DNA from: an uncultured delta proteobacterium
Lineage (GTDB): Bacteria > Myxococcota_A > Polyangia > Fen-1088
NCBI GenBank assembly: GCA_963737265.1
Contig: CAVTRY010000016.1
Span: 128,001 to 192,000 of the forward strand
DNA: 64,000 nucleotides
Reading direction: 5' to 3'
Position numbers and translations under genes: made by a program. The notes under the pieces were generated by a model. That model worked only from the letters and a program-made list of their open reading frames with translations. It searched no databases and was not told the origin of the DNA. Each line of letters begins with the position of its first letter. The stretch's first letter is position 1. Below, in pieces: positions 1 to 18,375 of the stretch.

Positions 1-843
1 GAAAACGGGCTGACCGCCCGCAAGTTCATGCTGACCAAGCGCTTCGCGCAAGGTCCCCCACCCCCCGAAGCATCCGGCACCGCCGCCGCCCCCATCACCT
101 GGGTCTTCGAGCCCGAAAGCTTCGCTCCCCTCGCCAAGCTAACCGCCATCGCAAGGTTCGGCATCGTCACCGACCACCTCGGCACGCCCACCGCGATGAT
201 CGACGAGCGGGGGAAGACTGTGTGGGGTGCTGACATTGGCGTGTACGGCGACCTGCGGAACGAAGTCGGGGAGAAGGCGGCGTGCCCGTTTAGGTGGCCC
301 GGGCAGTACGAGGACGAAGAGACGGGCCTGTACTACAACCGATTCCGGTACTACGACCCGGAGGCGGGGGAGTACACAGGTCAGGATCCAATTAGGTCGA
401 AGGGCGGGCTCGCTCTCTACGGATACGTTGGGGATCCACTTGTCTGGAAGGACCCCTTTGGCCTGGCGGGGGGCTGCGGATCCGAGGATACCGAAGAAAC
501 ACGAACTGGCTACCACGCTACGTCACCAGAAGCAGCGGCAGCAATCCGAAAGACTGGCTTCCGTGAAGGCACAAAGCCAGGACGCCTCGGTAGCCATGGA
601 ACCTATGTCAACAATACTCCTGAAGGCGCTATCGCGGAGTTCTCTCACCATAACCCTGGTGTCACGCCTGAGGTGTTGACGGTCCAGTATAGGCCCGGCG
701 TCGAGGCAGTGGCAGACGTCTCGCCGCGTAATTACGTTTCGGAGCATCCTCTCAACGCAGACAGCATCTCAGCGCCATCGGTTCGCGCCCCTGGAACGGT
801 CAACACCAACGTACTCAATCGAAGCACACAGGTCGTCCAATGA
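1..843 (+). CDS. rhs: Rhs protein 1 (5'-partial): Rhs core plus C-terminal toxin with RES/ADP-ribosyltransferase-like motifs
   Basis: Frame open from base 1. Core motif CPFRWPGQYEDEETGLYYNRFRYYDP...DPFGL. Tip has YHAT..AI..GF, GTY..TPEGAIAE and APSVRAPGTVN. Confidence 0.9.
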   Translation, partial: ENGLTARKFMLTKRFAQGPPPPEASGTAAAPITWVFEPESFAPLAKLTAIARFGIVTDHLGTPTAMIDERGKTVWGADIGVYGDLRNEVGEKAACPFRWPGQYEDEETGLYYNRFRYYDPEAGEYTGQDPIRSKGGLALYGYVGDPLVWKDPFGLAGGCGSEDTEETRTGYHATSPEAAAAIRKTGFREGTKPGRLGSHGTYVNNTPEGAIAEFSHHNPGVTPEVLTVQYRPGVEAVADVSPRNYVSEHPLNADSISAPSVRAPGTVNTNVLNRSTQVVQ

Positions 844-1199
844 AGTCCGAGCCGGTGCGATGTTGGCCTATTTCGCTCATAGATTCCGCCGGACGACCGG
901 AAGACGGCCATTGGATCGCATACCCAGAGGACAATCAGGGACATGACTTGATCATTTGCACGAGCTGTGGACACCTTTATGCAGTCAATGTTGCCAGAAT
1001 GGTTTACCTAGGTCCTCCGCTAGAGGAGAAGCTGAAGGTGCTTCTCTGCATGCAGTGCGGCGCGCCACTGAGCCGCACAGCAAGTGCATACCCAGAGACT
1101 TTTCGAGATAGGACCGGTGCGCTAAAGACCTGCGCACGCCCCCGTGAAATGCCGGCCGATGATCAGAGTGTGGTTCGAGATTTTGATCAGCTTTACTGA
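840..1199 (+). CDS. Putative immunity protein for Rhs1, with two CxxC motifs (Zn-ribbon-like)
   Basis: ATGA overlap with the toxin stop, lower GC, CTSC and CMQC motifs. Confidence 0.7.
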   Translation: MKSEPVRCWPISLIDSAGRPEDGHWIAYPEDNQGHDLIICTSCGHLYAVNVARMVYLGPPLEEKLKVLLCMQCGAPLSRTASAYPETFRDRTGALKTCARPREMPADDQSVVRDFDQLY

Positions 1200-1309
1200 T
1201 GGCAGAGATCCATGTCTCTGACCCAAGGTGCCTCTATTGACGTGGCCATGCGAAAGCCGGACAACCTCCGCACCCTGAACATCCCGCTGGCGAGTCTCCG
1301 CATTCCCCT

Positions 1310-1692
1310 GCGCTTGGGTGGTGCGCTTGGGTGGTGCGCTTGGGTGGTGCCAGGGTCTTTCTAAAAACGGGACGAACGGCGTCCGAGATCGCCAGCGTTC
1401 GAGCGGATAGCGGACAAGGGCGGGGGTCAGGACGGCGGTTTTGTCGTGAAACCTGGCGATTTCGAGCTGTCCAGGGCCAAGAGCGAGGCGGCGGAAGAGT
1501 GAGCCTCCATGCGGTGCGCTTGGGTGGTGCCAGGGTCTTTCTTAAAACGGGACGAACGGCGTCCGAGATCGCCAGCGTTCGAGCGGATAGCGGACAAGGG
1601 CGAGGGTCAGGACGGCGGTTTTGTCGTGAAACCTGGCGGTTTCGAGCTGTCCAGGGCCAAGAGCGAGGCGGCGGAAGAGTGAGCCTCCATGC
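1310..1692 (+). repeat. Repeat array 1: GCGCTTGGGTGGT stutters plus a 180-bp tandem duplication starting at the GGTGCCAGGGTCTTT motif
   Basis: 1333-1512 is nearly identical to 1513-1692 (gtccgagatc at 1381 and 1561). Confidence 0.9.
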
Positions 1693-1769
1693 GCCGGCAC
1701 ACGCCGGACAGACCTGTTCCTTCTCTGCCGGCGATCCAGTCCAATCGCCACGAATCGAGACCAGCCCCG

Positions 1770-2774
1770 TCAGGCCGGTGCGTTGAACGGCAAGGCCGGC
1801 GGGAAAGCCCCGAGGGGAAACATCTCCCTGATCTCGCGGGCGCGGTCGCGCAGGCGCAGGGCTCCGGCGCGGAAAGCGTCGACGAAGGCACGGTAGCGGA
1901 CACGGAATTCCTGCTCCGTCGAGTCGTCGCTTGCGTGGACGAAAGGTGCCGGGCTGCGATGGGTGGTTGTGGGCTTTGCGTGCGGATCTTGGGCGAGGAT
2001 GGCGGCGACACCCATGGGAGACCGCCCCTTCTCCTTGTTTTCGGCCTCGGCCGTGGCCTGGATCTCGCCGACGATGCGGCGGCACTCGGCCTCACCACGT
2101 GGGGAGCCGGCCAGCTTTGCTGGCCGCGTACCATCGCGGGAAGGTTTGGAAACACTCCTAGGGTTTCCAAGTCAGAATCGGCCAGCCGTCAGGTGTTCCA
2201 GGCACGGCAATGGAGTGAGCTCGACGTCGAAGGTGGTCGCGAACTGCGACGGGAAAACGGTCTCGCCACGCTGGCGGGCAAGAAACTCGGCGCTCCGGTC
2301 GAACCAGGTGCCACGCAGAATCTCGCCGGTGGTGAGGGCCGCGACGCAATTGGGACCCGGCCACGCGCCAGCAGACCCGACCAGGCCCTCCTTCGCGCCG
2401 TGGGCCAAGATGTATCGAAGGCGCGCGTGCGTGGCCCTTTCGTCGGCGACGACGATGGAGCGGTAGCGGCGAGACCACAGGCGCTCGCGCCACAGATAGA
2501 GCCGCCCCGCCTCCTTGGCCACGTTGGCATTCACGAACTGCATGAAAAGCGCGAGTTGACCGGCGCTGGTGGGTGAAAGCAAAAAGTGCGCGTGGGTGCT
2601 CAAAAACACGAAGGCGTAGATGGTCATGCCGTAGAGAGACTGGGCCTTGCCGATGACGCCGAGGATGATGTCGGTAAGCTCGGGCGAGGGCTTGAGTAGC
2701 AGCCTTCCCTGCAACGTACGGGTGGTGATCTCGACGACGGAGCGCTCGGGGATGAAACGGAGTGGCCGCGGCAT
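1770..2774 (-). mobile_element. HUH/Y1 (IS200/RAYT-like) transposase copy 1. Catalytic 200 aa intact; C-terminal part separated by an in-frame insert carrying a TGA
   Basis: MPRPLR start, HUH motif AFVFLSTHAHFLL, LWSRRY, catalytic-Tyr region LRYILAHGAKEGLV. ORFs 2172-2774 and 1770-2015 are in the same frame. Confidence 0.85.
2091..2179. repeat. 89-bp multi-hairpin miniature element inside the transposase (second copy at 14510-14598)
   Basis: Absent from copy 2, which has tcggcggt here. Stems ggccagc/gctggcc and ttggaaac/gtttccaa. Confidence 0.8.
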
Positions 2775-2860
2775 ACCGGACTATCGGCAAGGGAAGGCAC
2801 AAAGTTGCCCCCGCTGACCTGACCCCGGACAACCTCCGCGTTCTGAAGTAGCATCTCGCC

Positions 2861-5800
2861 GTGCCTGTGGCGACGACCTCGATCCTGCTGCTCGTGGCGT
2901 TGAGCGCTGCTGCCCCGGCACGCCCCGAGAACGAAAGGACTGGCGCCGTCATGGGTCTCGTCGGAGCGGCCGCGGCACCCAATCCCCTGGCCGCCGGCAT
3001 GGCCGCGGCGCAGACCGCCGTCGATACCGCCAAGATGGCCGTCGCCGCCCTGATGGGAAAAGATCCGGGCACGCCCCCGTGCATCGGGGCGATCTTGATG
3101 GGCACGCCCACGGTTCTCATCGGCGGCATTCCGCTGCCGCCCATCGAGAACTACGCGCGCGCCTTCTTCATGAAGCTGAACGGGCCGCTGGCCAGGGCCC
3201 TCCACAGCATCATCGGCAAGGTGCTGGGCAAGGGACGCGCGGCCAATTTCTTCAACGCCCTGACCTGCCACTTCACCGGCCACCCGGTCGACGTGGCCTC
3301 TGGGCGCATGCTGACTTCGGAAGAAGAGCTGCGCCTGCCGGGGCCGATTCCCCTCGTGTGGAAGCGCCAGTACGCCACCAGTTGGTCGGAACGCAACGGT
3401 CCGCTCGGCTGGGGCTGGAGCCACAGCTACGACATGGCGGTGTGGGGCGAGGCCGGCAAGCTGGTGTACCAGGCCGAAGACGGCCGCGAGATCGAGTTCG
3501 ATCTCGAGCCCGAGGCGCGCGACCGCATGCCGTGGCTGAAAGCGAACGAGCGCTGGGATCGCTTCAATCACCTGATCCTGCGCGAGTTGCGCGACGGCAC
3601 GTGGGAGGTCGAGAGCCTGGATGGTCTGGTGCGCGTCTTCGCGCCCATGCAAGGCGACCGCATTCGCCCCGGCCGGGCGCGCCTGGTATCCATCCGCGAC
3701 CGCTTCGACCACAAGATGACGTTCGGCTACGACCCCATCGGCAACCTGGCCATCATCGTGGACAGCGCCGGCCGCACCATCCGCGTGGAAAGCGACCAGG
3801 CCGGCCGGGTCGCGCGTGTGCTGGTGCCCGCGCCCGAGGCCGAGGCCTTCGTCGAGTACCTGCGCTACGACTACTCGCCCGAGGGCGACCTTGTGGCCGC
3901 CACCGATGTTCTTGGGCGCGCCATGCGCATGGGCTACGAGCGCCACCTCATGGTCAAGGAAACCAAGCGCGGCGGTTTGTCCTTCCACTTCGCCTACGAA
4001 GGCCGCGGCAACGACGCCCGCTGCATAGCGACCTGGGGCGACGGCGGCATCTACAAGCGCAGGCTTATCTACGACACCAACAACCACACCACCATCGTCA
4101 CCGACTCGCGCGGCGCGGACACCATCTACCGGATGAACGCCGACAACGCGGTGGTGTCGGTCACCGACGCCCTGGGCGCCGTCACCAAGTACGAATTCGA
4201 CGACTGCTACAACAAGATCTCCGAAACCGATCCACTCGACCACACCACCAGGTGGGCGTTCGACGAGCGGGGCAATTGCACCAAGGTCGTGCATCCCGAC
4301 GGCGCCGAGATTTCGCTCTTCTACGACGAGCGCAATGCGGTGATTCGCGCCGTCGACGCCATCAAGGGCGAGTGGCATTGGGAATACGACCGCGGTGGGC
4401 GCTTGCTGGCGCGCATGGATCCCTTAAGACGGGTCAGTCGCTTCGATTGGAAGTCCGAGGCCGAGCTGATGGGGCAGACCGGGCGGGTCGGTGCCGGCCT
4501 CAGCGCGGCCAAGCGCATGGTTGGCTTCACCGATCCGGCCGGTGGACAGACGACGCTGGAATACGACCGCCAGGGGTTGCTGGTCGGGATGCGCATGCCG
4601 AACGGGGCGCAGACGCGCTGGCGCTACGACCGCCTCGGCCGCTGCATCGAGGTCGTCGATACCAAGGGCAACCGCGAGCGGCGCGAATTCGATCTGGCCG
4701 GTCACATCCTGCGCGTCGACGTCCCCGACGGCAACGTGCGCAAGCTCGGCTACGATGCCGAGGGCAACGTGGTGGCGGTCAAGGACCAGCACTACGACGT
4801 GAAGTTCGCATACCAGGGCATGGGCCGCCTGGCCTCGCGCACGCAAGAAGGCACCACGGTCGCGTTCGAGTACGACAGCGAAGAATCGCTGGTGGCCATC
4901 CGCAACGAAGCCGGCGCCGTGTACCGCTTCACCCTGGACAAGGCCGGCAACGTCAAAGAAGAGAGCGGCTTCGACGGACTTTTGCGCAAATACGGCCGCG
5001 ACAAGGCTGGCCGCGTGCTGACCGTCGAGCGGCCCGACGAGCGCGCGACTGAGTACAGCTACGACACCGGCGGCCGGGTGGTCGCGGTCAAGTACAGCGA
5101 CGGCACAAGTGAAGAGTACGGCTACCGCCCCGACGGTGCCTTGATGGCGGCGATCAATGCCGCCGCCGAGGTCAAATTCGAGCGCGATGCCCTGGGCCGC
5201 ATCGTGAAGGAAGTTCAAGGCGAAGACACCGTGGAAAGCGCCTTCGACCTGCTCGGCCTGCGCAGCCGCATGAAGACCAGCAAGGGGCACGTGCTGGAGA
5301 TCGAGCGCAACCTCGTCGGCGACGTAGTGGGCATGAAGGCCGGCGGCGGCCCGGTTGCATCAGGTAGCGCGCCCGCCGCGCAGGCCGCCCTGCCACCCTG
5401 GGAAGCCCGCTTCACCCGCGATCAGCTTGGCCTGGAGGTCGAGCGCACCTTGCCCGGTGGCGTGCGAGCCCGCTGGGAGCGCGACAGCGTCGGCCGCCCC
5501 GTCAAGCACGAGATCTGGTCTGGCGGCACCGTGGTGTCCGCCCAGTCCTACACCTGGGAGCCCAACGACCGCCTCAAGATGATCATCGATGCCCTCAAGG
5601 GTCCCGTGCAGTACCGCCACGATGGCCTGGGCAACCTGATCGGCGCAGCCTACGCCGACGACAAGATCGACCTGCGCATGCCCGACGCTGTCGGCAACCT
5701 GTTCAAGACCCCCGACAAGAAAGATCGCAAGTACGGCCCCGCCGGCCAGCTATTGGAATCGCGGGGCGCCGACGGCGTCACGAAGTACGAATACGACCCC

Positions 5801-6928
5801 GAAGGCAACCTGGCCAAGAAGATCCTGCCCGACGGCAGCGCGTGGAAATACGAGTGGAACGGCGCCGGCATGCTGGCCAAGGTCATCCGCCCCGACGGCA
5901 AGACGGTAGAATTCGGCTACGACGCCCTCGGCCGCCGGGTCTGGAAGAAATACGGCGCCAAGACCACCAAGTGGATCTGGGACGGCAACGTGCCCGTGCA
6001 CGAATGGGTCGAGGTGGATCCGTCCGTGGAAGCCCCGCCGTCGCAGCAAGAAGCCGTGGAGTGGGAAAACGGGCTGCCCGCCCGCAAGTTCATGCTGACC
6101 AAGCGCTTCGCGCAAGGTCCCCCCTTGTCCGATCCCCTCTCCCACTGGGAGAGGGCTAGGGTGAGGGAAAATGCGACGGGAACAGCCGCCGCCCCCATCA
6201 CCTGGGTCTTCGAGCCCGAGTCTTTCGCCCCCCTCGCCAAACTGACCGCCACCGCAAGGTTCGGCATCGTCACCGACCACCTCGGCACGCCCACCGCGAT
6301 GATCGACGAGCGGGGGAAGACGGTGTGGGGTGCGGACATCGGTGTGTACGGCGACTTGCGAAACGTCGTCGGTGAGAAGGCGGCGTGTCCGTTTAGGTGG
6401 CCGGGGCAGTACGAGGACGAGGAGACGGGGCTGTATTACAACCGATTCCGGTACTACGACCCGGGGGCGGGGGAGTATGTAAGCCAGGATCCGATTGGGT
6501 TGAAGGGCGGACTGCGCGCCCATGGATACGCACACGATCCGCTAGCCTGGCTTGATCCGCTTGGACTCACATGTGGACCAGCAGGAAAGGACGTGGAAGA
6601 GCCACCCCACGTGTTCTGGTCAGGAGGAGAGAAGGCGATGAAGGCTGCCCAAGCATGGGCTGAGAAGCACGGTGGGGTCACATTGGAAATGACGGCAGGT
6701 GGCAGGCGCGCTGTTCGACACACTCAGGGTCTGGACGATTGGGAAATGGCCCGACCAGTCTGGGCCAAGGAGTCGCGACTGTTTGCTAAGAAGTCACAAG
6801 GCGAGGTTCATGTCTTTGCGACAAAAGAAGCCATGAACGATCCCAATCGCATTTTGAATTCCGTGGAAATACCGGCGCTGAAGCAAAATCCCCAGGTGAC
6901 AACCATTGTCCCACACGAGGTGCCATGA
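2861..6928 (+). CDS. rhs: Rhs protein 2: element-derived leader, PAAR-like remnant, DUF6531, YD repeats, core, and ADP-ribosyl-cyclase-like (Tox-ARC) tip
   Basis: MGTPTVLIGG, GHPVDVASG..GPLGWGWSHSY, YD repeats, DPLGL. Tip FWSG..TLEMT..W..SRLFA..GEVHV..SVEIPAL resembles CD38/ARC motifs. Confidence 0.9.
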   Translation: MPVATTSILLLVALSAAAPARPENERTGAVMGLVGAAAAPNPLAAGMAAAQTAVDTAKMAVAALMGKDPGTPPCIGAILMGTPTVLIGGIPLPPIENYARAFFMKLNGPLARALHSIIGKVLGKGRAANFFNALTCHFTGHPVDVASGRMLTSEEELRLPGPIPLVWKRQYATSWSERNGPLGWGWSHSYDMAVWGEAGKLVYQAEDGREIEFDLEPEARDRMPWLKANERWDRFNHLILRELRDGTWEVESLDGLVRVFAPMQGDRIRPGRARLVSIRDRFDHKMTFGYDPIGNLAIIVDSAGRTIRVESDQAGRVARVLVPAPEAEAFVEYLRYDYSPEGDLVAATDVLGRAMRMGYERHLMVKETKRGGLSFHFAYEGRGNDARCIATWGDGGIYKRRLIYDTNNHTTIVTDSRGADTIYRMNADNAVVSVTDALGAVTKYEFDDCYNKISETDPLDHTTRWAFDERGNCTKVVHPDGAEISLFYDERNAVIRAVDAIKGEWHWEYDRGGRLLARMDPLRRVSRFDWKSEAELMGQTGRVGAGLSAAKRMVGFTDPAGGQTTLEYDRQGLLVGMRMPNGAQTRWRYDRLGRCIEVVDTKGNRERREFDLAGHILRVDVPDGNVRKLGYDAEGNVVAVKDQHYDVKFAYQGMGRLASRTQEGTTVAFEYDSEESLVAIRNEAGAVYRFTLDKAGNVKEESGFDGLLRKYGRDKAGRVLTVERPDERATEYSYDTGGRVVAVKYSDGTSEEYGYRPDGALMAAINAAAEVKFERDALGRIVKEVQGEDTVESAFDLLGLRSRMKTSKGHVLEIERNLVGDVVGMKAGGGPVASGSAPAAQAALPPWEARFTRDQLGLEVERTLPGGVRARWERDSVGRPVKHEIWSGGTVVSAQSYTWEPNDRLKMIIDALKGPVQYRHDGLGNLIGAAYADDKIDLRMPDAVGNLFKTPDKKDRKYGPAGQLLESRGADGVTKYEYDPEGNLAKKILPDGSAWKYEWNGAGMLAKVIRPDGKTVEFGYDALGRRVWKKYGAKTTKWIWDGNVPVHEWVEVDPSVEAPPSQQEAVEWENGLPARKFMLTKRFAQGPPLSDPLSHWERARVRENATGTAAAPITWVFEPESFAPLAKLTATARFGIVTDHLGTPTAMIDERGKTVWGADIGVYGDLRNVVGEKAACPFRWPGQYEDEETGLYYNRFRYYDPGAGEYVSQDPIGLKGGLRAHGYAHDPLAWLDPLGLTCGPAGKDVEEPPHVFWSGGEKAMKAAQAWAEKHGGVTLEMTAGGRRAVRHTQGLDDWEMARPVWAKESRLFAKKSQGEVHVFATKEAMNDPNRILNSVEIPALKQNPQVTTIVPHEVP
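6134..6167. repeat. boxC-like palindromic element inside the Rhs coding frame (also 12296-12329)
   Basis: cccctctcccactgggagagggctagggtgaggg, translated as PLSHWERARVR. Absent from Rhs1 (GPPPPEASGTAAAP). Confidence 0.7.
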
Positions 6929-7410
6929 GTGGAAAGAGGAAAAGGGTCGGTTCGGGAAGGCAAGAACCAAGCAAGCCATGGAACGGTGTCGAGCTTTTCA
7001 AAGAGATGGAAGGGAAAACCTCCGGGTACTTGGGCCACATAAAGGTGACTTTTGTTCGGGATGACCGCTCTGACGAGGAAATAGGGGCAGCTGACCGTGC
7101 GAGGTGGCAAGAGCATCGGATTTGGGAGATGCCTCTGGGCTTCAGTCTTGTACCCAACGGTCGCGCTGGTACCATCTACTTTCGTCGAGGCCAGAAGCTA
7201 GTCGAGTTGGACGCTGAGTTGGCGGGCAATCCGGCCCTCGACATCGTGCTGTCCGGTGGTGATTTGAGCAAATGGATCGATGTAGATACTCTCGGATCGG
7301 AGCCGGTTTCCGCCGAGGATCAAAGTGGAATCAGGGATTCCCTCATCGAATGGCTGACCAAGAAGGGACTTAAGTTCTCCATTGGGGGCGTTGTGATCGT
7401 TCGGCGGTAG
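6925..7410 (+). CDS. Immunity protein, Imm74-like
   Basis: ATGA coupling to the toxin. GRAG.IY..G....E...W.....VS..DQ..I...L...G pattern. Imm74 is the known partner family of Tox-ARC. Confidence 0.7.
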   Translation: MSGKRKRVGSGRQEPSKPWNGVELFKEMEGKTSGYLGHIKVTFVRDDRSDEEIGAADRARWQEHRIWEMPLGFSLVPNGRAGTIYFRRGQKLVELDAELAGNPALDIVLSGGDLSKWIDVDTLGSEPVSAEDQSGIRDSLIEWLTKKGLKFSIGGVVIVRR

Positions 7411-7416
7411 AAATGA

Positions 7417-8250
7417 GGGGTGGTGCCGCTTGGGTGGTGCCGCTTGGGTGGTGCGCTTGGGTGGTGCCAGGGTCTTTCTGAAAACGGGACGAACGGCGTC
7501 CGGTGCGCTTGGGTGGTGCCAGGGTCTTTCTGAAAACGGGACGAACGGCGTCCGAGATCGCCAGTATTCGAGCGGATAGCGGACAAATGCGAGGGTCAGG
7601 ACGGCGGTTTTGTCGTGAAACCTGGCGGTTTCGAGCTGTCCAGGGCCAAGAGCGAGGCGGCGGAAGAGTGAGCCTCCATGCGCCGGCACACGCCGGACAG
7701 ACCTGTTCCTTCTCTGCCGGCGGTCCAGTCCCGGTCCAGTCCAATCACCACGAATCGAGACCAGCCCCGTCAGGCCGGTGCGTTGAACGGCAAGGCGCCG
7801 CTTGGGTGCGCCGCTTGGGTGCCAGGGTCTTTCGCGCCGCTTGGGTGCCAGGGTCTTTCGCGAGACGCCGTGGGTGGTGCCCGTGGGTGGTGCCAGGGTT
7901 TTTCTGAAAACGACAAGGCCCGTGGGTGGTGCCAGGGTTTTTCTGAAAACGACAAGGCGGTGCGCGGGGGTGGTGCCAGGGTCTTTCTGAAAGCTGGAGG
8001 AACGCTTGGGTGGTGCCGGGGTCTTTCTGAAAACGGGACGAACGGCGCGGGGATGGTGCCGCGGGGGTGGTGCCAGGGTCTTTCTGAAAGCTGGAGGAAC
8101 GCTTGGGTGGTGCCAGGGTCTTTCTGAAAACGGGACGCACGGCGTCCGAGATCGCCAGTGTTCGAGCGGATAGCTGTCGCTTGGGTGGTGCCAGGGTCTT
8201 TCTGAGGAGCTAAAGGAACGCTTGGGTGGTGCCAGGGTCTTTCTGAAAAC
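7417..8250 (+). repeat. Repeat array 2: about 12 co-oriented GGTGCCAGGGTYTTTC copies, each followed by a variably truncated tail
   Basis: Copies near 7463, 7515, 7818, 7843, 7889, 7928, 7972, 8012, 8069, 8109, 8187, 8228. Confidence 0.9.
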
Positions 8251-9155
8251 GGGACGAACGGCGTCCGAGATCGCCAGCGTTCGAGCGGATAGCGGACAAG
8301 GGCGAGGGTCAGGACGGCGGTTTTGTCGTGAAACCTGGCGGTTTCGAGCTGTCCAGGGCCAAGAGCGAGGCGGCGGAAGAGTGAGCCTCCATGCGCCGGC
8401 ACACGCCGGACAGACCTGTTCCTTCTCTGCCGGCGGTCCAGTCCAATCACCACGAATCGAGACCTGCCCCGTCAGGCCGGTGCGTTGAACGGCAAGGCCG
8501 GCGGGAAAGCCCCGAGGGGAAACATCTCCCTGATCTCGCGGGCGCGGTCGCGCAGGCGCAGGGCTCCGGCGCGAAAAGCGTCGACGAAGGCACGGTAGCG
8601 GATACGGAATTCCTGCTCCGTCGAGTCGTCGCTTGCGTGGACGAAAGGTGCCGGGCTGCGATCGGTGGTTGTGGGCTTTGCGTGCGGATCTTGGGCGAGG
8701 ATGGCGGCGACACCCATGGGAGACCGCCCCTTCTCCTTGTTTTCGGCCTCGGCCGTGGCCTGGATCTCGCCGACGATGCGGCGGCACTCGGCTCGGCGGT
8801 GGTCAGCCGTCAGGTGTTCCAGGCACGGCAATGGAGTGAGCTCGAACGTCGAAGGTGGTCGCGAACTGCGACGGGAACACGGTCTCGCCACGCTGGCGGG
8901 CAAGAAACTCGGCGCTCCGGTCGAACCAGGTGTGAAGTGGACCCCTTTGGTAGGACCAGAAATGGCCCGAGCTAAGAGAGAGTCCGCGTGGGTTTGTTTG
9001 TAGATCCGGGTGAGCCTCGCCGGCAAGGAAATTGTTGAGAGCGGAGGCATGCTGATGGCTGCTGTCCACGGATGCAATGCGCGCACGGCCCCACAGAAGC
9101 AGGTGAACGCGTTGCAGTTGTGGGCAGCGTGCCATCAGCATGATGCAGCGGCGAT

Positions 9156-9992
9156 TTAGGCGGCCTCTTTCATCGCCGACTTCTTTAGTTCGAATTCGTA
9201 AAACGCTACGGGTGTCTGAAATCCAAGGGTTTGGTGAGGCCGCCTGTGGTTGTACTTGTCCAGGTAGATCGCGATGCCACTGCGGGCGTCGGCCACGTCT
9301 CGGTAGTCGTTCAAGTAGACCTCCTCGCATTTGACAGACCGCCATAGACGCTCGACGAAGATGTTGTCCATGAATCGGCCGCGACCGTCCATGCTGACCT
9401 TTACGCCCTTGTCCAGCAAAACCGATGTGAAGTTGTCGTCGGTAAACTGCGACCCCTGGTCGGTGTTGAAGATCTCCGGCAAGCCGAAGTTCGCAAGAGC
9501 TTCTTCCACGACCTCGATGCAAAAACGGCTGTCCATCGTGTTTGAAATGCGCCAGGACAGAACCCGGCGCGTGTACCAATCCATCACGGCGACCAGGTAG
9601 CAATGCCCCTGTCTCGTCGGGATGTACGTGATATCCGAGGCCCACACCTGATTGGGCCGAATGATCGCGAGATGGCGCAGCAAGTACGGGAATTTCGTAT
9701 GTTCCGGCGCGGGGACGGTCGTCCGTGGTTTGGGCGCCAGCGCTTCGATGCCCATGATTCGCATCAGTCTCTGCACCCGTTTGCGATTCACCGTCTGCCC
9801 CTGTGCCTTTAGCAACCGTGACAGCTTCCGGCTGCCGAATGCTGGCAATTCGAGATGCAGCTTGTCCAGCTCCTTGCAGATGGCCAGATCTTCCTCTGCC
9901 ATCGGCATCGGCTCCCAGTAGATGCCCGATCTCGCAAGATTCAGCAGCTCGCACTGCCGACGGACAGATAGGTCGTTGTGGGGCTCGATCAT
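9156..9992 (-). CDS. IS3 transposase OrfB (DDE integrase core)
   Basis: NQVWASDITY, NTDQGSQFT, DNIFVERLWRSVKCE. Confidence 0.95.
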   Translation of the reverse strand: MIEPHNDLSVRRQCELLNLARSGIYWEPMPMAEEDLAICKELDKLHLELPAFGSRKLSRLLKAQGQTVNRKRVQRLMRIMGIEALAPKPRTTVPAPEHTKFPYLLRHLAIIRPNQVWASDITYIPTRQGHCYLVAVMDWYTRRVLSWRISNTMDSRFCIEVVEEALANFGLPEIFNTDQGSQFTDDNFTSVLLDKGVKVSMDGRGRFMDNIFVERLWRSVKCEEVYLNDYRDVADARSGIAIYLDKYNHRRPHQTLGFQTPVAFYEFELKKSAMKEAA

Positions 9993-10006
9993 GGCGCGCT
10001 TCTCCG

Positions 10007-10300
10007 TCAGCGAATGCGCGCGAGCCCGCGTGCTAAAAAATCATTCTCCAGCGTCAGCTGCCCCACCTTGCGCAGCAATTCCGATTCGCGTTCGGCGTTC
10101 GCCGATTCCTCTGCATTTGCATGGCCTGGTTCGAAAACCATGGCCAGCCGTGTGACGGCTTCCTTCTTCCACTTGTGAACCAGGTTCGGGTTGATCTTGT
10201 ATCGGCGCCCGATCTCCACAACCGTTGCCTGCTCCCGCATGGCTTCGAGAGCTACCTGCGCCTTGAAGAGTGCTGTGTGCTTTTGGCGGTTCGTTTTCAT
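10007..10300 (-). CDS. IS3 transposase OrfA (HTH), joined to OrfB by a predicted -1 frameshift
   Basis: FKAQVALEA..KVGQLTLENDFL. T TTT TTA slippery site at 10034-10040; the -1 frame is open into OrfB. Confidence 0.9.
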   Translation of the reverse strand: MKTNRQKHTALFKAQVALEAMREQATVVEIGRRYKINPNLVHKWKKEAVTRLAMVFEPGHANAEESANAERESELLRKVGQLTLENDFLARGLARIR

Positions 10301-10921
10301 CGTGTCCTGCCTCGTTGTTGAGGCGGACTACACCTTAGCTCCTGGTCCCATTTTTGGGGTCCACTTCAGTGCCACGCAGAATCTCGCCGGTGGTGAGGGC
10401 CGCGACGCAATTGGGACCCGGCCACGCGCCAGCAGACCCGACCAGGCCCTCCTTCGCGCCGTGGGCCAAGATGTATCGAAGGCGCGCGTGCGCGGCCCTT
10501 TCGTCGGCGACGACGATGGAGCGGTAGCGGCGAGACCACAGGCGCTCGCGCCACAGATAGAGCCGCCCCGCCTCCTTGGCGACGTTGGCATTCACGAACT
10601 GCATGAAAAGCGCGAGTTGACCGGCGCTGGCCGGCGAGAGGAGAAAATGGGCATGCGTGGAAAGGAATACGAAGGCATGGATGGTCATGCCGTAGAGAGA
10701 CTGGGCCTTGCCGATCACGCCGAGGACGATGGCGGTAAGCTCGGGCGAGGGCTTGAGTAGCAGCCTTCCCTGCAACGTACGGGTGGTGATCTCGACGACG
10801 GAGCGCTCGGGGATGAAACGGAGTGGCCGCAGCATACCGGACTATCGGCAAGGAAAGGCGCAAAGTTGCCCCCGCTGACCTGACCCCGGACAACCTCCGC
10901 GTTCTGAAGTAGCATCTCGCC

Positions 10922-13102
10922 GTGGCTGCGGCGACAACCTCGATCTTGCTGCTCCTGGCTTTGAGCGGTGCCGCCCCATCATGCCCCAAGAATGAAAGGA
11001 CTGGCCGCGAGGCTGGTACCAGAATTTTTCTCGGCGGAGTCTATCGCGAGGCTGGTGCCAGAGTTTTTCTCGGCGGCGCCATCTATCGGTTCAAACTGGA
11101 TGCCGCTGGCGATGTCGCGGAAGAATGCGGCTTCGACGGACTTTTGCGCAAATACGAGCGCGACCTGGCCGGCCGAGTGAAGAAGGTTCTGCGCCCAGGG
11201 GCGAGATTCTCCGAATACGGTTACGATCCAGCCGGCCGAGTGGTCGCCGTCAAGCACAGCGACGGCAGCGAGGAGCAGTTCGCGTACCGCCCCGATGGCG
11301 CCATGATCCAAGCCGGGAACGCCAACGGCGTACTAGCGCTAGAGCGCGATCTGCTCGGCCGCCTGGTGCGGGAAGGCCAGGACGGCCACTTCGTCGAGAG
11401 CCAGTACGACCTGCGCGGCCTGCGCAGCCGCATGACTTCGTCGTTCGGACACGTGCAGGAAATCGAACGCAACGTGATGGGCGACGTGACCGCCATCCGC
11501 GCCGGGGGCGGCTACCTGGCGCCCAAGGACGCGGGCGAGGCGGCGAAGCCCGCGGACATGTTCGAAGCGCGCTTCACCCGCGATCAGCTGGGCCAAGAGC
11601 TGGAGCGCACCCTGCCCGGTGGTGTACGCAGCCGCTGGGAGCGCGACAAGCTGGGCCGCCCCGTGAAGCACGAAGTGTGGTCGGGAAACAAAGCCATCGC
11701 CGCTTGGGCCTACACCTGGGACGTGAACGACCGCCTGCGCATGGTCGTCGACGCGCTCAAGGGCCCCGTCAGCTACGAGCACGATGCTTTCGGCAACCTG
11801 GCCAAAGCCGTCTATGCCGACGGCCAAGTCGACCTGCGCATGCCCGACGCCGTCGGCAACCTGTTCAAGACCACCGACAAGAAAGACCGCAAGTACGGCC
11901 CCGCCGGCCAGCTATTGGAATCGCGGGGCGCCGACGGCGTCACGAAGTACGAATACGACCCCGAAGGCAATCTCGCCAAGAAGATCCTGCCCGACGGCAG
12001 CGAGTGGAAGTACGAGTGGAACGGCGCCGGCATGCTGGCCAAGGTCGTTCGCCCCGACGGCAAGACGGTAGAATTCGGCTACGACGCCCTCGGCCGCCGG
12101 GTCTGGAAGAAATACGGCGCCAAGACCACCAAGTGGATCTGGGACGGCAACGTCCCCGTCCACGAGTGGGTCGAGGTGGATCCGTCCGTGGAAGCTCCGC
12201 CGCCGCAGCAAGAAGCCGTGGAATGGGAAACCGGGCTGACCGCCCGCAAGTTCATGCTGACCAAGCGCTTCGCGCAAGGTCCCCCCTTGTCCGATCCCCT
12301 CTCCCACTGGGAGAGGGCTAGGGTGAGGGAAAATGCGACGGGAACAGCCGCCGCCCCCATCACCTGGGTCTTTGAGCCCGAAAGCTTCGCTCCCCTCGCC
12401 AAGCTAACCGCCATCGCAAGGTTCGTCATCGTCACCGACCACCTCGGCACGCCCACCGCCATGCTCGACGAGCGGGGGAAGGCGGTGTGGTCCGCCGACA
12501 TCGGCGTGTACGGCAACTTGCGAAACGTCGTCGGCGAGAAGGCGGCGTGTCCGTTTAGGTGGCCGGGGCAATACGAGGACGAAGAGACGGGGCTGTATTA
12601 CAACCGGTTCCGGTACTACGACCCGGGGGCGGGGGAGTATGTCAGTCAGGATCCGATTGGGCTCCGCGCAGGACTCCAATTTGCATCGTACGCCAGAGAT
12701 CCGTTGGCCCATATAGATCCGTTGGGCCTCAGCTGCGTGCCACCTGATCCTGAGGTTGCCGATGCAATTGCGTCTGGACGACCGATCGTAGTTGTCGGCC
12801 GCAGCATGGGACGGGTTGGGCCGGTTGCCGATGCGATTCGGGCAGCGGGAGGGGATGTGAAGACATACAATCCCAGAAACTTCCGTACTACGCCTGGCAA
12901 TATCGAGCCGAAGGACGTGGCGGCGAATCGGTCATGGCTCAAGTATTGGGCAAAGGATCGGAACGCATTGATTGTCGATATCGGATACGACCCCGCCAAA
13001 CCAGGAGTCGCGGGGCCGTTCTACGGCGTAGAACGGGCGTCCCTATACAAGAACTGGGCGTCCGATGGCGTCGACGTTGTTCCGTACAACCCCGGATTCT
13101 AA
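10922..13102 (+). CDS. rhs: Rhs protein 3 (internally truncated, fused to element leader) with C-terminal toxin of unassigned family
   Basis: Rhs homology starts at GAIYRFKLD, matching GAVYRFTLD of Rhs2. Core and DPLGL present. Tip VVGRSMGRV..NRSW..IVDIGYD..FYGVER. Confidence 0.85.
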   Translation: MAAATTSILLLLALSGAAPSCPKNERTGREAGTRIFLGGVYREAGARVFLGGAIYRFKLDAAGDVAEECGFDGLLRKYERDLAGRVKKVLRPGARFSEYGYDPAGRVVAVKHSDGSEEQFAYRPDGAMIQAGNANGVLALERDLLGRLVREGQDGHFVESQYDLRGLRSRMTSSFGHVQEIERNVMGDVTAIRAGGGYLAPKDAGEAAKPADMFEARFTRDQLGQELERTLPGGVRSRWERDKLGRPVKHEVWSGNKAIAAWAYTWDVNDRLRMVVDALKGPVSYEHDAFGNLAKAVYADGQVDLRMPDAVGNLFKTTDKKDRKYGPAGQLLESRGADGVTKYEYDPEGNLAKKILPDGSEWKYEWNGAGMLAKVVRPDGKTVEFGYDALGRRVWKKYGAKTTKWIWDGNVPVHEWVEVDPSVEAPPPQQEAVEWETGLTARKFMLTKRFAQGPPLSDPLSHWERARVRENATGTAAAPITWVFEPESFAPLAKLTAIARFVIVTDHLGTPTAMLDERGKAVWSADIGVYGNLRNVVGEKAACPFRWPGQYEDEETGLYYNRFRYYDPGAGEYVSQDPIGLRAGLQFASYARDPLAHIDPLGLSCVPPDPEVADAIASGRPIVVVGRSMGRVGPVADAIRAAGGDVKTYNPRNFRTTPGNIEPKDVAANRSWLKYWAKDRNALIVDIGYDPAKPGVAGPFYGVERASLYKNWASDGVDVVPYNPGF
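11006..11070 (+). repeat. Two variant motif copies at the leader/Rhs3 junction
   Basis: cgcgaggctggtaccagaatttttctcggcgg and cgcgaggctggtgccagagtttttctcggcgg. Confidence 0.8.
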
Positions 13103-13103
13103 A

Positions 13104-13608
13104 ATGGAAAAGCTGGTTTCTTCCTTCAATGAAATCTTCACCAAGACAGCGCTCGAACGCGTTCTCGTTCCTTGTCAAGAGAAGAGACTTTGAATTCTGC
13201 GACGTTTGGCATGATCGGAATGCCGACCCACGTGATCTTGAGACAAAGATCCGTTATCGGAGTCCACGAGTCTTCGTTGATATCGTCCTGACCGAGGTCG
13301 ATCTTGGACTCTTTGTCTTCGCATGGAGAATTCCAACGGGCGCTGCTCGCGGTGCGTGTTGGGCACTGCAGCCGACTGGTGTCGTGAACTTCGACCTATA
13401 CCTTCAAGATCACTTCGGGGATAGTCTTCCGCCGCTCTTCCTGGATTTGAAGAAGCCGATCTATTTGACAGAGATGTACAATCAACAGTCACGAAAATAC
13501 GCGCGACTCCTTGCGGCTCGACTGCCGGAGGCAATTCGAGGCACAGCAGGGCGTCTCGAGAAATACGGCAGGGAACTACTTGACGGCATCCCCTCTGCAT
13601 TCACGTAG
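13104..13608 (+). CDS. Putative immunity protein for Rhs3 (apparent +1 frameshift near 13156, or alternative start at 13129)
   Basis: ATG 1 bp after the toxin stop. Removing one A in ctcgaac gives MEKLVSSFNEIFTKTALDAFSFLVKRRDFEF, continuous to 13608. Confidence 0.65.
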
Positions 13609-13629
13609 AGTCTCGCTGTGGTCTTCATA

Positions 13630-13970
13630 GCGCTTGGGTGATGCGCTTGGGTGGTGCCAGGGTCTTTCGTGTCCTTCCGTGCTAGGTGCCCGTGCTAGGT
13701 GCCAGAGTCTTGATTAAGGCTTACGTCAGGACGGTGCGTGCTAGGTGCTGCGTGCTAGGTGCCAGAGTCTTGATTAAGGTTTGCGTCAGAACGGTCCCCC
13801 AAGTTCTGTACGGTCGAGTTGATTGAGACCTGATGGGAACTATCTGCCGCTTGGGTGGTGCCAGGGTCTTTCTGAAAACGCTTGGGTGGTGCGCTTGGGT
13901 GGTGCGCTTGGGTGGTGCCAGGGTCTTTCTGAAAACGCTTGGGTGGTGCCAGGGTCTTTCTGAAAACGGG
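13630..13970 (+). repeat. Repeat array 3: about 6 motif copies, including the variant CGTGCTAGGTGCCAGAGTCTTGATTAAGG
   Basis: Standard copies near 13653, 13857, 13914, 13945; variants near 13698 and 13758. Confidence 0.9.
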
Positions 13971-14188
13971 ACGAACGGCGTCCGAGATCGGCAGCGTTCG
14001 AGCGGATAGCGGACAAGGGCGAGGGTCAGGACGGCGGTTTTGTCGTGAAACCTGGCGGTTTCGAGCTGTCCAGGGCCAAGAGCGAGGCGGCGGAAGAGTG
14101 AGCCTCCATGCGCCGGTACACGCCGGACAGACCTGTTCCTTCTCTGCCGGCGGTCCAGTCCAATCACCACGAATCGAGACCAGCCCCG

Positions 14189-14762
14189 TCAGGCCGGTGC
14201 GTTGAACGGCAAGGCCGGCGGGAAAGCCCCGAGGGGAAACATCTCCCTGATCTCGCGGGCGCGGTCGCGCAGGCGCAGGGCTCCGGCGCGGAAAGCGTCG
14301 ACGAAGGCACGGTAGCGGACACGGAATTCCTGCTCCGTCGAGTCGTCGCTTGCGTGGACGAAAGGTGCCGGGCTGCGATGGGTGGTTGTGGGCTTTGCGT
14401 GCGGATCTTGGGCGAGGATGGCGGCGACACCCATGGGAGACCGCCCCTTCTCCTTGTTTTCGGCTTCGGCCGTGGCCTGGATCTCGCCGACGATGCGGCG
14501 GCACTCGGCCTCACCACGTGGGGAGCCGGCCAGCTTTGCTGGCCGCGTACCATCGCGGGAAGGTTTGGAAACACTCCTAGGGTTTCCAAGTCAGAATCGG
14601 TCAGCCGTCAAGTGTTGCAGGCACGGCAATGGAGTGAGCTCGACGTCGAAGGTGGTCGCGAACTGCGACGGGAACACGGTCTCGCCGCGCTGGCGGGCAA
14701 GAAACTCGGCGCTCCGGTCGAACCAGGTGCCACGCAGAATCTCGCCGGAGTGGCCGCGGCAT
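14189..14762 (-). pseudogene. HUH/Y1 transposase copy 3 with a ~431-bp deletion removing the catalytic domain
   Basis: Junction ctcgccgg|agtggccg joins the copy-1 equivalents of 2329 and 2761 through CGG microhomology. Carries the 89-bp insert. Confidence 0.85.
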
Positions 14763-14848
14763 GCCGGACTATCGGCAAGGGAAGGCACAAAGTTGCCCCC
14801 GCTGACCTGACCCCGGACAACCTCCGCGTTCTGAAGTAGCATCTCGCC

Positions 14849-15391
14849 GTGCCTGTGGCGACAACCTCGATCCTGCTGCTCGTGGCGTTGAGCGGTGCTG
14901 CCCCGGCATGCCCCGAGAACGAAAGGACTGGCGCCGTCATGGGGCTCGTGGGAACGGCCACGACACCCAATGCCCTGGCCGCCGGCATGGCCGCGGCGCA
15001 AACCGCCGTCGATACCGCCAAGATGGCCGTCGCCGCCCTGATCCGGGCACGCCCCCGTGTATCGGCGCCATCTTGATGGGCACGCCCACGGTGCTCATCG
15101 GCGGCATTCCGCTGCCGCCCCTCGAAAACTGCGCGCGCGCCTTCTACATGAATCGGACACCATCTACCAGATGAACGCCGACAACGCGGTGGTGTCGGTC
15201 ACCGACGCGTTGGGCGCCGTCACCAAATACGAATTCGACGACTGCTACAACAAGGTCGCCGAAACCGACCCGCTCGACCACACCACCCGGTGGGCGTTCG
15301 ACGAACGGGGCAATTGCACCCAGGTCATGCACCCCAACGGCGCCGAGACTTCGCTTTTCTACGACGAGCGCAATGCGGTGATTCGCGCCGT
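14849..15391 (+). pseudogene. Decayed duplicate of the Rhs2 5' region
   Basis: Same leader junction as Rhs2, a 10-bp deletion at ~15040, a ~0.9-kb deletion at ~15152; homology ends at NAVIRAV. Confidence 0.85.
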
Positions 15392-15536
15392 TATCGCCGT
15401 CACGGTGCCAACCGTCTTTCTGATGTTCGTCGCGTGGTTCATGCCGTGGGCAGCCATCTATGCCAACATCGACCTGAACGCCGACGTTCAGCAGCCTGTG
15501 CCAGCCGACGACCGAGCGCAGCCACCGCAAAAGTGA
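15392..15536 (+). pseudogene. Possible 3' remnant of a membrane-protein gene at the island edge
   Basis: Open frame IAVTVPTVFLMFVAWFMPWAAIYANIDLNAD...PQK*, unrelated to Rhs. Confidence 0.4.
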
Positions 15537-15644
15537 CCCGCGGCCCGATCGCACCAGCCGTTGCGCAAGTCGTTGCGCCAGGGGCCGGGGACGACTAGGC
15601 GCGAAGTTGGCCCGCTAAACTACCCGCACCGCATCGGCTCGGAA

Positions 15645-16535
15645 CTACGGCGGCATACCCATGGCAGCGCGGACGGCGATGAACTCCTCGCTCCGCCGTC
15701 CGCCTGGACCGCGCACCACGAGCGGAGGTTCCATGACGAGGGGTTCGGCGTGCTCGGCTTTGCGCATGGCGAACACGCACAGCAGCGGCTCTTTGCCGGT
15801 GCGAGGAACGATCTCACGCCAACGAACCAGGGCAAGGCCGGCAGCGCGTGCCGCCGGCTCGACGCGATCGCGCTGAGTCCAGGCTTGGCAAGCCACGAAC
15901 GGCGCATTGGGCGCCAAACGAGGCGTGGCCGCCGTGCAGTACGCTTCGATCCCACCGCGGTGCTCGAAACGGCAGGGGCCGCGCTGGATGCGGTCCGATT
16001 GCGGCCCGGCGTCGAGGGGGAAATAGGGAGGCGTGCCGGTCACGAGGTCGAAGGGCGCTTGCTGAGCAAGGTCGAGCGAGTCGCGAAGGTCGTGCACGAA
16101 AATCTGGGCACGATCCGCGATGCCGTTCCATGCGAGCGAACGGTTGGCCAGGCCAGCGGAGATCTCTTGCGCCTCGACGCCGAGGAGTCGCGCACCCGGG
16201 AAACGCCAAGCGAGAAACAACAGCACGCTGCCGATGCCGCAGCCAAGATCGAGGCAGCGCACCGGCGGCTTGTCCGCTACGAGCGACGCGGCCAGGTGAG
16301 CGGTCACGAGATCGTCGAGGGATGTCCGGTGCCCGTCGAGCCGCTGCAGGATGCGCCAGTTACCTGCAAGCCAGCACAGATCCTCCTGCAAATCCGGCCA
16401 CAAGGGATCGAGGTCGGCGGGAATCGCGGGAGTCGGTCCCGATGCGCTCCAGCCCACCGGTCGGCGGGCCGCGCGCAGCACGCCTCCGTGCGGCGAAACT
16501 TGATCGACGGGACCTGGCAACAAGGAGATCGGCAC
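15645..16535 (-). CDS. SAM-dependent methyltransferase, tRNA1(Val) A37-N6 (TrmN6/YfiC)-like
   Basis: ILQRLDGHRTSLDD, LDLGCGIGSV, GTPPYF, CRFEHRGG. Confidence 0.8.
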   Translation of the reverse strand: MPISLLPGPVDQVSPHGGVLRAARRPVGWSASGPTPAIPADLDPLWPDLQEDLCWLAGNWRILQRLDGHRTSLDDLVTAHLAASLVADKPPVRCLDLGCGIGSVLLFLAWRFPGARLLGVEAQEISAGLANRSLAWNGIADRAQIFVHDLRDSLDLAQQAPFDLVTGTPPYFPLDAGPQSDRIQRGPCRFEHRGGIEAYCTAATPRLAPNAPFVACQAWTQRDRVEPAARAAGLALVRWREIVPRTGKEPLLCVFAMRKAEHAEPLVMEPPLVVRGPGGRRSEEFIAVRAAMGMPP

Positions 16536-16683
16536 GGCCTGCGAATAGTATCAGACAGTTATTGAAGGGAGGGCCGCAGCCATCGCCTCGTCCGCGAAGC
16601 AAATTCGCGGACTTCACCCCACCTGCGGCCGAGCTCTTGGCTCGGCTGCTGGGGAACTATCCAATTCTTGGACGTTTTTCACT

Positions 16684-18189: not shown

Positions 18190-18375
18190 GACGTTTCTTC
18201 CTTCCGGCCGCAACGTAGATGCGCGCGCAGGATGTAGCAAGGTATTCTCGACTACTTGGTCTAGATTTAGCTGCGAAGAAACCGGAACAGTGCACAGAAG
18301 CAACTAGAAAGAAACGTATTAGAAACAGATGGTCCGAAAACGGCAGTTTTCGTTTGGGATGCTAGAACGAAGCTC

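Follow-up and report, generated by a model that had tools for sequence, protein, structure and literature searches.

The Rhs toxin cluster described here raises the question of whether a small Y1 HUH transposase and the arrays of a short motif beside it act together as an integron-like platform that captures, duplicates and reorders toxin tips with their immunity genes, as had been proposed in an earlier reading of the same DNA (the original prediction). The window, i.e., the whole stretch that was analysed, comprises 64,000 nt of an uncultured delta proteobacterium (assembly GCA_963737265.1, contig CAVTRY010000016.1, hereafter C16, positions 128,001-192,000), taken from a metagenome-type assembly of 6.55 Mb in 25 contigs with 7.6% contamination. 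We consider it probable that the arrays are reiterated right termini of a Y1 transposon resembling the REP-associated tyrosine transposases (RAYT; REP, repetitive extragenic palindrome), and that the Y1 genes of the cluster are passengers copied by host recombination. Direct support exists for the architecture of this element, for the confinement of the motif to Y1 copies, for the damaged state and common lesions of the cluster copies and for the rarity of Rhs neighbours in the family. Comparisons covered 26 genome loci, 80 metagenomic loci (73 with a full-length Y1 gene) and 61 related genomes; in addition, four public sequencing runs of one study contain parts of the stretch as short contigs, which showed no joints.

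Searching the window for the 15-mer GGTGCCAGGGTCTTT with up to two mismatches gave 21 matches, all on the plus strand between 1346 and 13959, compared with 0.11 expected from shuffled sequence, and the non-random, co-oriented motif of the original prediction thus held. Across the whole assembly, with at most one mismatch, 40 matches were found, 20 of them at C16:123846-141959, which is the Rhs cluster and reaches upstream of the window, and 20 at C23:171480-172167, adjoining a Y1 gene on another contig. The looser pattern GGTGCCAGNGTYTT yielded 56 matches in nine places, eight of which lie in the C16 cluster or beside the Y1 copies on C22 and C23, the ninth being a singleton; it added the flanks of the C22 gene copy, a few variants within the C16 cluster and this singleton, and nothing else. 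A genome scan for the motif had been proposed as a check: the matches are confined to Y1 copies, bar the singleton, and the motif is therefore real and non-random, yet not dispersed as a REP would be. Moreover, the motif changes along with the protein subfamily, as the C22 copy (83-85% identical) has GGTGCCAGAGTTTTC and GGTGCCAGCGTTTTC ends. This co-variation, the position of the motif beside Y1 copies in the genome and its fixed inverted geometry in relatives support the motif as the cognate site of the Y1/HUH protein and bear out the proposed pairing of enzyme and motif.

The inverted geometry is most evident at the C22 copy, where five GGTGCCAGAGTTTTC units stand upstream and seven reverse-complemented GGTGCCAGCGTTTTC units downstream of the gene, i.e., cores lie on both sides in opposite orientation, and the element therefore has inverted terminal repeats. 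Among full-length metagenomic loci with at least 150 nt of upstream flank (n=68), a forward core was present in 55 and a reverse core in nine, about the chance rate, and 33 carried two or more cores. Downstream, where at least 330 nt of flank was required (n=60), a reverse core was found in 54 loci, a forward core in ten and two or more cores in 39. The first downstream core lies 210-274 nt past the stop codon in 14 of the 16 genome loci with a core, the exceptions being L017 (396 nt) and L027 (233 nt after a 312-codon open reading frame, ORF); in two of the 18 genome loci examined no terminal core was found downstream of the stop. The description of the motif as direct and non-palindromic accordingly holds for this cluster only; at other loci, inverted copies of this core stand to either side of the gene. 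The terminal sequences, GGGGAGGT or GGGTGGTG, agree with the published GGGGWSAS consensus of the majority type of terminal repeat in the first positions only. RNAalifold, run on both strands of 16 aligned right ends, found no consensus hairpin, although the alignment was gappy and the test correspondingly weak.

An uninterrupted Y1 gene of 307 codons is located at L010:7311-8234 on C23, and a second uninterrupted copy, 83-85% identical, on C22 (tblastn, own genome). Together with these two intact copies the genome holds four broken ones, and the broken ones are the four copies of the cluster (copies 0, 1, 2 and 3). The ORF at 2172-2774 on the minus strand (200 aa), from which the transposase had been recognised, is present and Y1-like, with the HUH motif THAH and the tyrosine within RLRYILAHGAKEGLV, but the real gene has about 307 codons rather than 200. 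Copy 1 carries an 84-bp insert with an in-frame TGA, and therefore about 325 bp beyond this ORF are Y1 coding sequence. The supposed conserved tail of about 260 bp is indeed a conserved block, but much of it is the C-terminal third of the Y1 gene, and only about 230 bp are non-coding. The Y1 genes in the window and the sequence between gene and terminus are as follows.

1541-1769 (about 230 bp), minus strand: non-coding subterminal tail from the Y1 stop to the terminal motif, comparable to the stop-to-core spacing in related loci.
1770-2774, minus strand: Y1/HUH gene copy 1 (335 codons), interrupted by the in-frame stop TGA of the 84-bp insert at 2172-2174.
About 2090-2180: 84-bp dispersed repeat inserted in frame into copy 1, bringing the TGA stop.
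8472-8932, minus strand: 3' part of Y1 copy 2, without the 84-bp insertion.
8933-10365, minus strand: IS3-type insertion sequence (IS) splitting Y1 copy 2, 1433 bp, encoding an integrase-core transposase (Pfam rve E=1.4e-25), with a 3-bp GTG duplication.
10366-10835, minus strand: 5' part of Y1 copy 2.
14189-14762, minus strand: Y1 copy 3, with the 84-bp insertion and a deletion equivalent to window 2329-2758.

Copy 0, located just upstream of the window, has both the deletion of copy 3 (equivalent to 2329-2758) and the 84-bp insert, so that the dispersed-repeat insertion is common to copies 0, 1 and 3. These common lesions mean that the units were duplicated after the gene had been damaged, i.e., by host recombination. 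The original prediction had described a unit occurring three times; the block of tail, Y1, leader and Rhs does repeat at 94-98% identity, but the Y1 copies within it are unequal, one being split by the IS and another carrying the deletion.

Two observations concern the inserted sequences themselves. The IS3-type element is present across the assembly in 20 full-length copies (99.7-100% identity) and four partial ones, and looks recently active. The 84-bp insert belongs to a small dispersed repeat family, with cluster sites at about 2090-2180, about 14510-14600 and C16:124445-124541, further copies on C11, C15, C7 and C9 and tandem arrays at C21:168661-168872 and C14:157047-157204; a piece resembling it lies in L023 near 16900-16960.

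What the arrays consist of became apparent when each unit was aligned to the innermost, gene-continuous copy of the terminus. All units start at one outer position, (GC)T-TGGGTGGTGC, and match inward for 10, 11, 21, 23, 24, 26, 29, 41, 45, 71, 173 or 222 nt, giving 12 distinct inner end-points. Arrays 1 to 3 hold 4, 14 and 7 units, and the C23 array 29.

1310-1545, plus strand: array 1, four nested right-terminus copies of 10, 10 and 173 nt followed by the real end.
7417-8260, plus strand: array 2, 14 nested terminus copies of 10-222 nt.
13630-13960, plus strand: array 3, seven nested terminus copies; a third subfamily (CGTGCTAGGTGCCAGAGTCTTG...) interrupts them with its orphan termini at about 13680-13850.

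The 222-nt match in array 2 is the head of a longer partial copy (7501-7796) reaching the last Y1 codons. Nested units with a common outer start were also found at both ends of the C22 copy and of four unrelated metagenomic copies (L040, L046, L071 and L098), and in L098 some left-end units extend into the start of the coding sequence. As judged from these alignments, the nesting resembles the footprint of a process that acts site-specifically on the terminus, which likewise supports the motif as the cognate site. The left end of the cluster copies, located in the leader, is degenerate: 60 nt ahead of the ATG, GGTTGTCCGGGGTC takes the place of the canonical GGTGCCAG.... In addition, a copy of the outer part of this leader/left end (CCGGACAACCTCCGC) lies at 1258-1282, between immunity ORF 0 and array 1 and outside the right terminus, and may be the relic of a second, reduced element.

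Such nested repeats might also be suspected of being collapsed or chimeric, considering that the assembly is of metagenome type with the contig number and contamination given above and that numerous metagenomic contigs break off a few hundred bases or less from the Y1 gene. An assembly artefact is hardly credible, as lesions, tip and immunity genes are particular to each unit, the independent assemblies of L023 and L029 show this architecture as well, and nested arrays recur in four unrelated contigs. The contig ends in question (L038-L117) lie on one or both sides of the gene, and reiterated termini may themselves break short-read assemblies.

On the explanation that we favour, the element consists of the 307-aa gene between inverted terminal repeats with the core GGTGCCAG, and in some ancestor of the lineage one such element with a degenerate left end would have ended up immediately upstream of an Rhs gene, in head-to-head orientation. 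The block of right terminus, tail, Y1, leader and Rhs core would then have multiplied through ordinary homologous recombination within the Rhs array, the tips and immunity genes would have turned over as in any Rhs orphan array, and the Y1 genes of the cluster would have decayed as passengers. As for the arrays, Y1 would nick the outer terminus, on the strand reading from terminus to interior, immediately 5' of (GC)TTGGGTGGTGCC, and remain attached to the 5' end of the element through a 5'-phosphotyrosine; the 3'-OH of the flank would be extended inward over a variable distance and the displaced end religated, and every such event would add one copy starting at the nick. Replication slippage probably then amplified existing units, and the independent events would therefore be fewer than the units. 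Units that begin at one outer position and end at various inner ones, at either of the two inverted termini, would be the expected residue of HUH chemistry. If the arrays are indeed scars of nicking, short extension and religation, the genome sequence directly records where, and on which strand, a so far unstudied HUH enzyme cleaves.

How the element relates to the toxin genes depends on the layout of the Rhs cluster, whose remaining features in the window are listed here.

1-843, plus strand: 3' end of an Rhs gene (core and C-terminal tip), Pfam RHS E=2.8e-11, TIGR03696 Rhs_assc_core E=7.9e-22.
840-1199, plus strand: candidate immunity gene 0 (119 aa), overlapping the Rhs stop; role assigned from position.
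2775-2950, no strand assigned: leader, comprising the Y1 5' region, the degenerate left end (about 2805-2845, GTGCCAG core lost) and the Rhs 5' region.
2861-6928, plus strand: Rhs1, full length, 1355 aa, with DUF6531, RHS repeats and RHS core; tip unique from about 6502.
6925-7410, plus strand: candidate immunity gene 1 (161 aa); role assigned from position.
10922-13102, plus strand: 5'-truncated Rhs, 726 aa, its leader joined to the body via two terminus units of another subfamily (11016-11075).
13105-13608, plus strand: candidate immunity gene 2 (167 aa).
14763-15405, plus strand: leader 3 and Rhs remnants, equivalent to window 2758-3174 and 4116-4367.

The Rhs at 1-843 is the end of a full-length gene that begins upstream and is continuous with C16:124791-128498, and a further stretch of the cluster, about 10.5 kb long and comprising two or more additional units, precedes the window. 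Array, tail, Y1, leader and Rhs body make up one conserved block, which reaches the core/tip boundary near 6502-6530 and is 94-98% identical between units; the tips and small downstream ORFs vary. Full-length Rhs, a small ORF behind each tip and 5'-truncated pieces with other tips characterise a polymorphic-toxin array with orphan modules, the immunity function being assigned by position; neither the candidate immunity ORFs nor the tips matched any family above cut-off in Pfam or NCBIfam. The view that each unit holds a 5'-truncated Rhs applies to ORF 10922, whereas the Rhs at 2861-6928 is full length and the third is a remnant reaching to about 15405. The starts of the arrays behind the immunity genes, given originally as about 110, 7 and 20 bp, were reproduced at 111, 7 and about 22 bp past the stops at 1199, 7410 and 13608.

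Several tips end in a similar C-terminus (…NNW.GD.DV…PGF before the stop; L009 9200-10400 and 13250-13775, window 13040-13102), and two of the small ORFs behind those tips are mutually related (…HFDEAF.YLA.RA…TP.FL before the stop). One short tip remnant with its own small ORF lies between modules without a Y1 element, like classical orphan modules. Beyond the cluster, the sequence at 16568-16674 (about 87-107 bp) matches many places in related genomes, is not a tRNA, and forms head-to-tail 87-bp arrays at G002:C3:192975-193516 and G008:C23:1842-2384. An Rfam scan of window 1-16000 (E<=1) gave zero matches, and a tRNA/tmRNA scan of window 1-20000 found none. The downstream flank of the cluster has orthologs in all five genus members tested, none of them directly beside an Rhs gene: on the contig of the ortholog, Rhs lies about 16 kb off in G012 and about 28 kb off in G008, and the other three contigs have no Rhs match. 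For the upstream flank no clear ortholog was found among the genus members tested.

Several features of the cluster weigh against a purely passive element. At six junctions (arrays -1, 0, 1, 2, 3 and C23), unrelated flanking DNA meets the outer terminus within about 3 nt; four of these termini start GCTTGGG and two GGGGTGGTGCC, and the flank is the 3' flank of a candidate immunity gene in five cases and a different gene at C23. These terminus-precise new junctions are not explained by passive duplication, because duplication alone creates none. Furthermore, the spacers of this single cluster contain termini of at least four subfamilies, namely the main one, ...CCAGAGTTTTCCTGGTG in an upstream unit where the whole Y1 gene is gone and right-end units abut a left-end remnant, CGTGCTAGGTGCCAGAGTCTTG in array 3, and GAGGCTGGTGCCAGAGTTTTTCTCGG at 11016-11075. 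Y1 elements therefore visited the cluster repeatedly. The two GAGGCTGGTGCCAGAGTTTTTCTCGG units at the leader/Rhs junction of ORF 10922 are the variant motifs that the original prediction had noted at this junction; they have the orientation of the others and are read through by the truncated Rhs ORF. The intact Y1 at C23, with the same termini and a 5' piece of Rhs, could moreover supply the enzyme in trans, and a Y1-Rhs composite is present in three genomes of the genus. Taken together, these features suggest that DNA has been actively broken and joined at the terminus and that such elements build up in the spacers of the island. As immunity genes abut the exact terminus, nicking there may have promoted cassette junctions.

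This leads to an explanation in which the right terminus would be a hot spot: Y1 supplied in trans, from the intact C23 copy or from earlier intact copies, would nick it, and the resulting breaks would promote illegitimate joining or adjacent deletions right at the terminus and so speed cassette turnover, with the element repeatedly shaping the neighbouring immunity gene and no dedicated capture taking place. It would account for six flanks of different sequence that all stop at one and the same final base or bases, in contrast to the invariable left junction, for the partial terminus units (about 27 nt, like common array units) joined to foreign DNA at 11016-11075, and for copies 0 and 3, which share a catalytic-domain deletion and have different right flanks; the intact copy with identical termini at C23 offers a source of enzyme. 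Nevertheless, the varied flanks could also have come by homologous exchange with relatives of the same architecture, G002 has a Y1 neighbour for one of at least four modules only, and no clean pair of empty and filled sites was found, the G002 homolog of tip1/immunity 1 being followed by other DNA. We regard the hot-spot explanation as unlikely, although the abutment of immunity genes to the terminus leaves room for a modest role of the element in cassette turnover.

Whether the association with Rhs extends beyond this cluster was assessed in the relatives. Among the 26 genome loci, Rhs lies near Y1 clearly in L023 and L029, both of the same genus, and weakly in L012; the 80 metagenomic loci gave one weak Rhs-like match (98 aa, 31% identity). 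In 12 other genomes of the genus, Y1 was detected in ten with one query and Rhs in seven with the other, and G002:C23 and G007:C250 are the only places where the two adjoin. The genus also has Rhs clusters that lack Y1 (G002:C30, G012, G007:C86, G008 and G005) and Y1 copies that lack Rhs. The Rhs-linked Y1 copy of G007 has lost the HUH region, and no end is recognisable. The original prediction had looked to enrichment for toxin neighbours around the homologs of the enzyme, and such neighbours were largely lacking; a scatter of homologs and motif without a toxin link, which it had named as a refutation, is largely what was observed.

On C23 of the own genome, the intact Y1 with its identical termini is joined to 577 bp of an Rhs 5' end (97% identity, 1-nt gap), and the left junction to the Rhs 5' region is common to all cluster copies, to C23 and to the G002 locus L023; it therefore arose once. 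L023 also holds a tip and immunity module homologous to tip1/immunity 1. At the breakpoint of the C23 Rhs 5' remnant (equivalent to window 3351) no end-like motif was found. The surroundings on C23 (L010 6373-7224 and 9228-9965) place the intact Y1 between the Rhs 5' remnant and a pair of small ORFs. The remnant adjoins genes of NADH-dehydrogenase type. A DUF3368 domain is present in the second of the two small ORFs, which may form part of a toxin-antitoxin-like pair.

Against this background, an integron-like or one-ended (read-through) platform, capturing, duplicating and reordering tip-immunity units between co-oriented termini, appears very improbable. Co-oriented termini do bound every unit, the left end of the Rhs-linked copies lacks the conserved core, as read-through requires, and a composite with part of Rhs is also present at C23. 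However, all four cluster Y1 copies are broken, their common lesions prove host-mediated duplication, the G007 composite is dead and lacks ends, the C23 breakpoint has no end-like motif, the link to Rhs is as rare in relatives as described above, and G002 forms orphan Rhs modules without Y1. The platform as originally proposed is thus not upheld. In a related variant, the intact C23 enzyme, acting in trans, would still nick the right terminus on a specific strand, with read-through moving terminus-bounded toxin units; judged on sequence, this is quite improbable. Were the terminus live, with the left end lost, processing would continue past Rhs, tip and immunity gene as far as the following co-oriented terminus, and entire toxin units would be excised, duplicated or re-inserted, which would amount to HUH-driven shuffling of polymorphic toxins in a myxobacterial lineage. 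Overall, a dedicated capture or shuffling system of any kind has a slim chance of being correct. For Rhs biology the outcome is mostly deflationary: the repeat architecture would be a transposon relic carried along by recombination of the array, and not a new capture machine. In the literature searched, we found no published link of Y1/RAYT enzymes to Rhs cassettes, and a search on REP-associated tyrosine transposases in Myxococc- found nothing.

Turning to the transposase itself, scores stayed below the cut-offs of both relevant families: the 200-aa ORF at 2172-2774 reached 47.2 bits against a cut-off of 80 for NCBIfam REP_Tyr_transpos (NF047646, E=2e-12) and E=4e-4 for Pfam Y1_Tnp, where the scores were 19-21 bits against 23. 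A word-indexed search with the 307-aa protein gave 977 relatives at E<=1e-3, of which the best 120 are 78-100% identical and mostly exactly 307 aa long, with names, where given, such as hypothetical, 'REP element-mobilizing transposase RayT' and 'transposase [Polyangia bacterium]'. An exhaustive search gave 3984 cluster representatives at the same threshold and 492 at E<=1e-30, mostly of 300-320 aa. In an alignment of 68 sequences, THAH corresponds to residues 60-63 with H61 invariant, Y121 is nearly invariant and the KEGLV block is kept; the family motifs are NHxH for HuH (here THAH) and YxLxHG for the tyrosine (consensus RLRYxLxHGxKEGLV, without NP). Searched against the Protein Data Bank (PDB), the family profile matched ISDra2 TnpA (3.6e-5) and E. 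coli TnpAREP (4ER8, 3.3e-4). The AlphaFold (AF2) model, with a predicted local distance difference test (pLDDT) score of 95.5 and a predicted template modelling (pTM) score of 0.92, had 4ER8 as its best PDB match in Foldseek (E=1.2e-6, template modelling (TM) score 0.71 on the target, 2.4 A root-mean-square deviation), followed by ISDra2 and IS608. Motif, profile and predicted fold agree in placing the protein in the Y1 HUH nuclease superfamily (TnpA_Y1).

The narrower classes fit less well. The Y---NP motif of RAYT/TnpAREP class 2 is absent from the family consensus, and Table 1 of PMC6006769 lists no subclass with such HuH and Y motifs. The single-copy, vertically inherited pattern of RAYTs was not seen either, the family occurring in 17 of the 61 related genomes, in 1-5 places each, with many fragments and no synteny. 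IS200/IS605 elements are distinguished by Y---Q, which is missing here, and by one-strand subterminal hairpins, in place of which there are inverted-repeat ends. In the C-terminal half of the protein, Pfam gave no helix-turn-helix (HTH) match. The family is part of a large, uncharacterised branch of the TnpA_Y1 superfamily, and the element, as far as its ends and gene indicate, is a TIRtron/TIRYT-like relative of RAYTs and not a REPtron.

TIRtrons are among the closest known systems. Like them, the element has a RAYT-like Y1 gene between terminal inverted repeats (TIRs) and not REP hairpins, occurs in several different copies per genome and is found in soil phyla without classical REPs, as far as the text of Di Nocera et al. 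(2013, PMC3733652) describes them; TIRs are said there to be 'organized ... in dimers or clusters', and TIRYT is discussed in section 15 of Quentin et al. (2018, PMC6006769). By contrast, the termini here fit GGGGWSAS in the first positions only, there is no Pfam match to an HTH, a trait of subclass 2.1, and the HuH (NHxH/THAH) and Y (YxLxHG, not Y---NP) motifs fall outside the subclasses tabulated in the latter review. No description of nested reiteration with a common outer end at both termini was found for TIRtrons, although figures or supplements of these two papers may already show clustered TIRs of such a kind.

With REPtrons the element shares its best structural match (4ER8, E. coli TnpAREP), cognate repeats that are inverted around the gene and the co-variation of repeats and protein; it differs in that its repeats stand beside the gene and are not dispersed, in the lack of a GTAG tag and of any conserved hairpin found, in a multi-copy, patchy and often fragmented family as opposed to a single-copy vertical one, and in a protein twice as long. 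IS200/IS605 elements are similar in the Y1 HUH fold and in the profile similarity to the TnpA of ISDra2 and IS608, whereas the present element has no Y---Q, no tnpB and inverted-repeat ends in place of same-strand subterminal hairpins.

The toxin side of the locus has its counterpart in the rhs orphan arrays of E. coli, where a full-length rhs is followed by 5'-truncated pieces with their own tip and immunity gene, with ISs of H-rpt/ISAs1 type, and for which a C-terminal displacement model has been put forward. The cluster resembles these arrays in its full-length gene followed by 5'-truncated modules and in the mobile elements carried along between modules. It differs in that the resident is a Y1/HUH TIRtron and not a DDE IS, that it occupies the same place in each unit and that its terminus abuts the immunity genes. 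The structure, real and unusual as it looks, thus combines two things of known kind: an Rhs orphan array and, mostly dead within the cluster, a Y1 element like a TIRtron. What is new is the 307-aa subclass, so far uncharacterised, and the nested reiteration found at either terminus.

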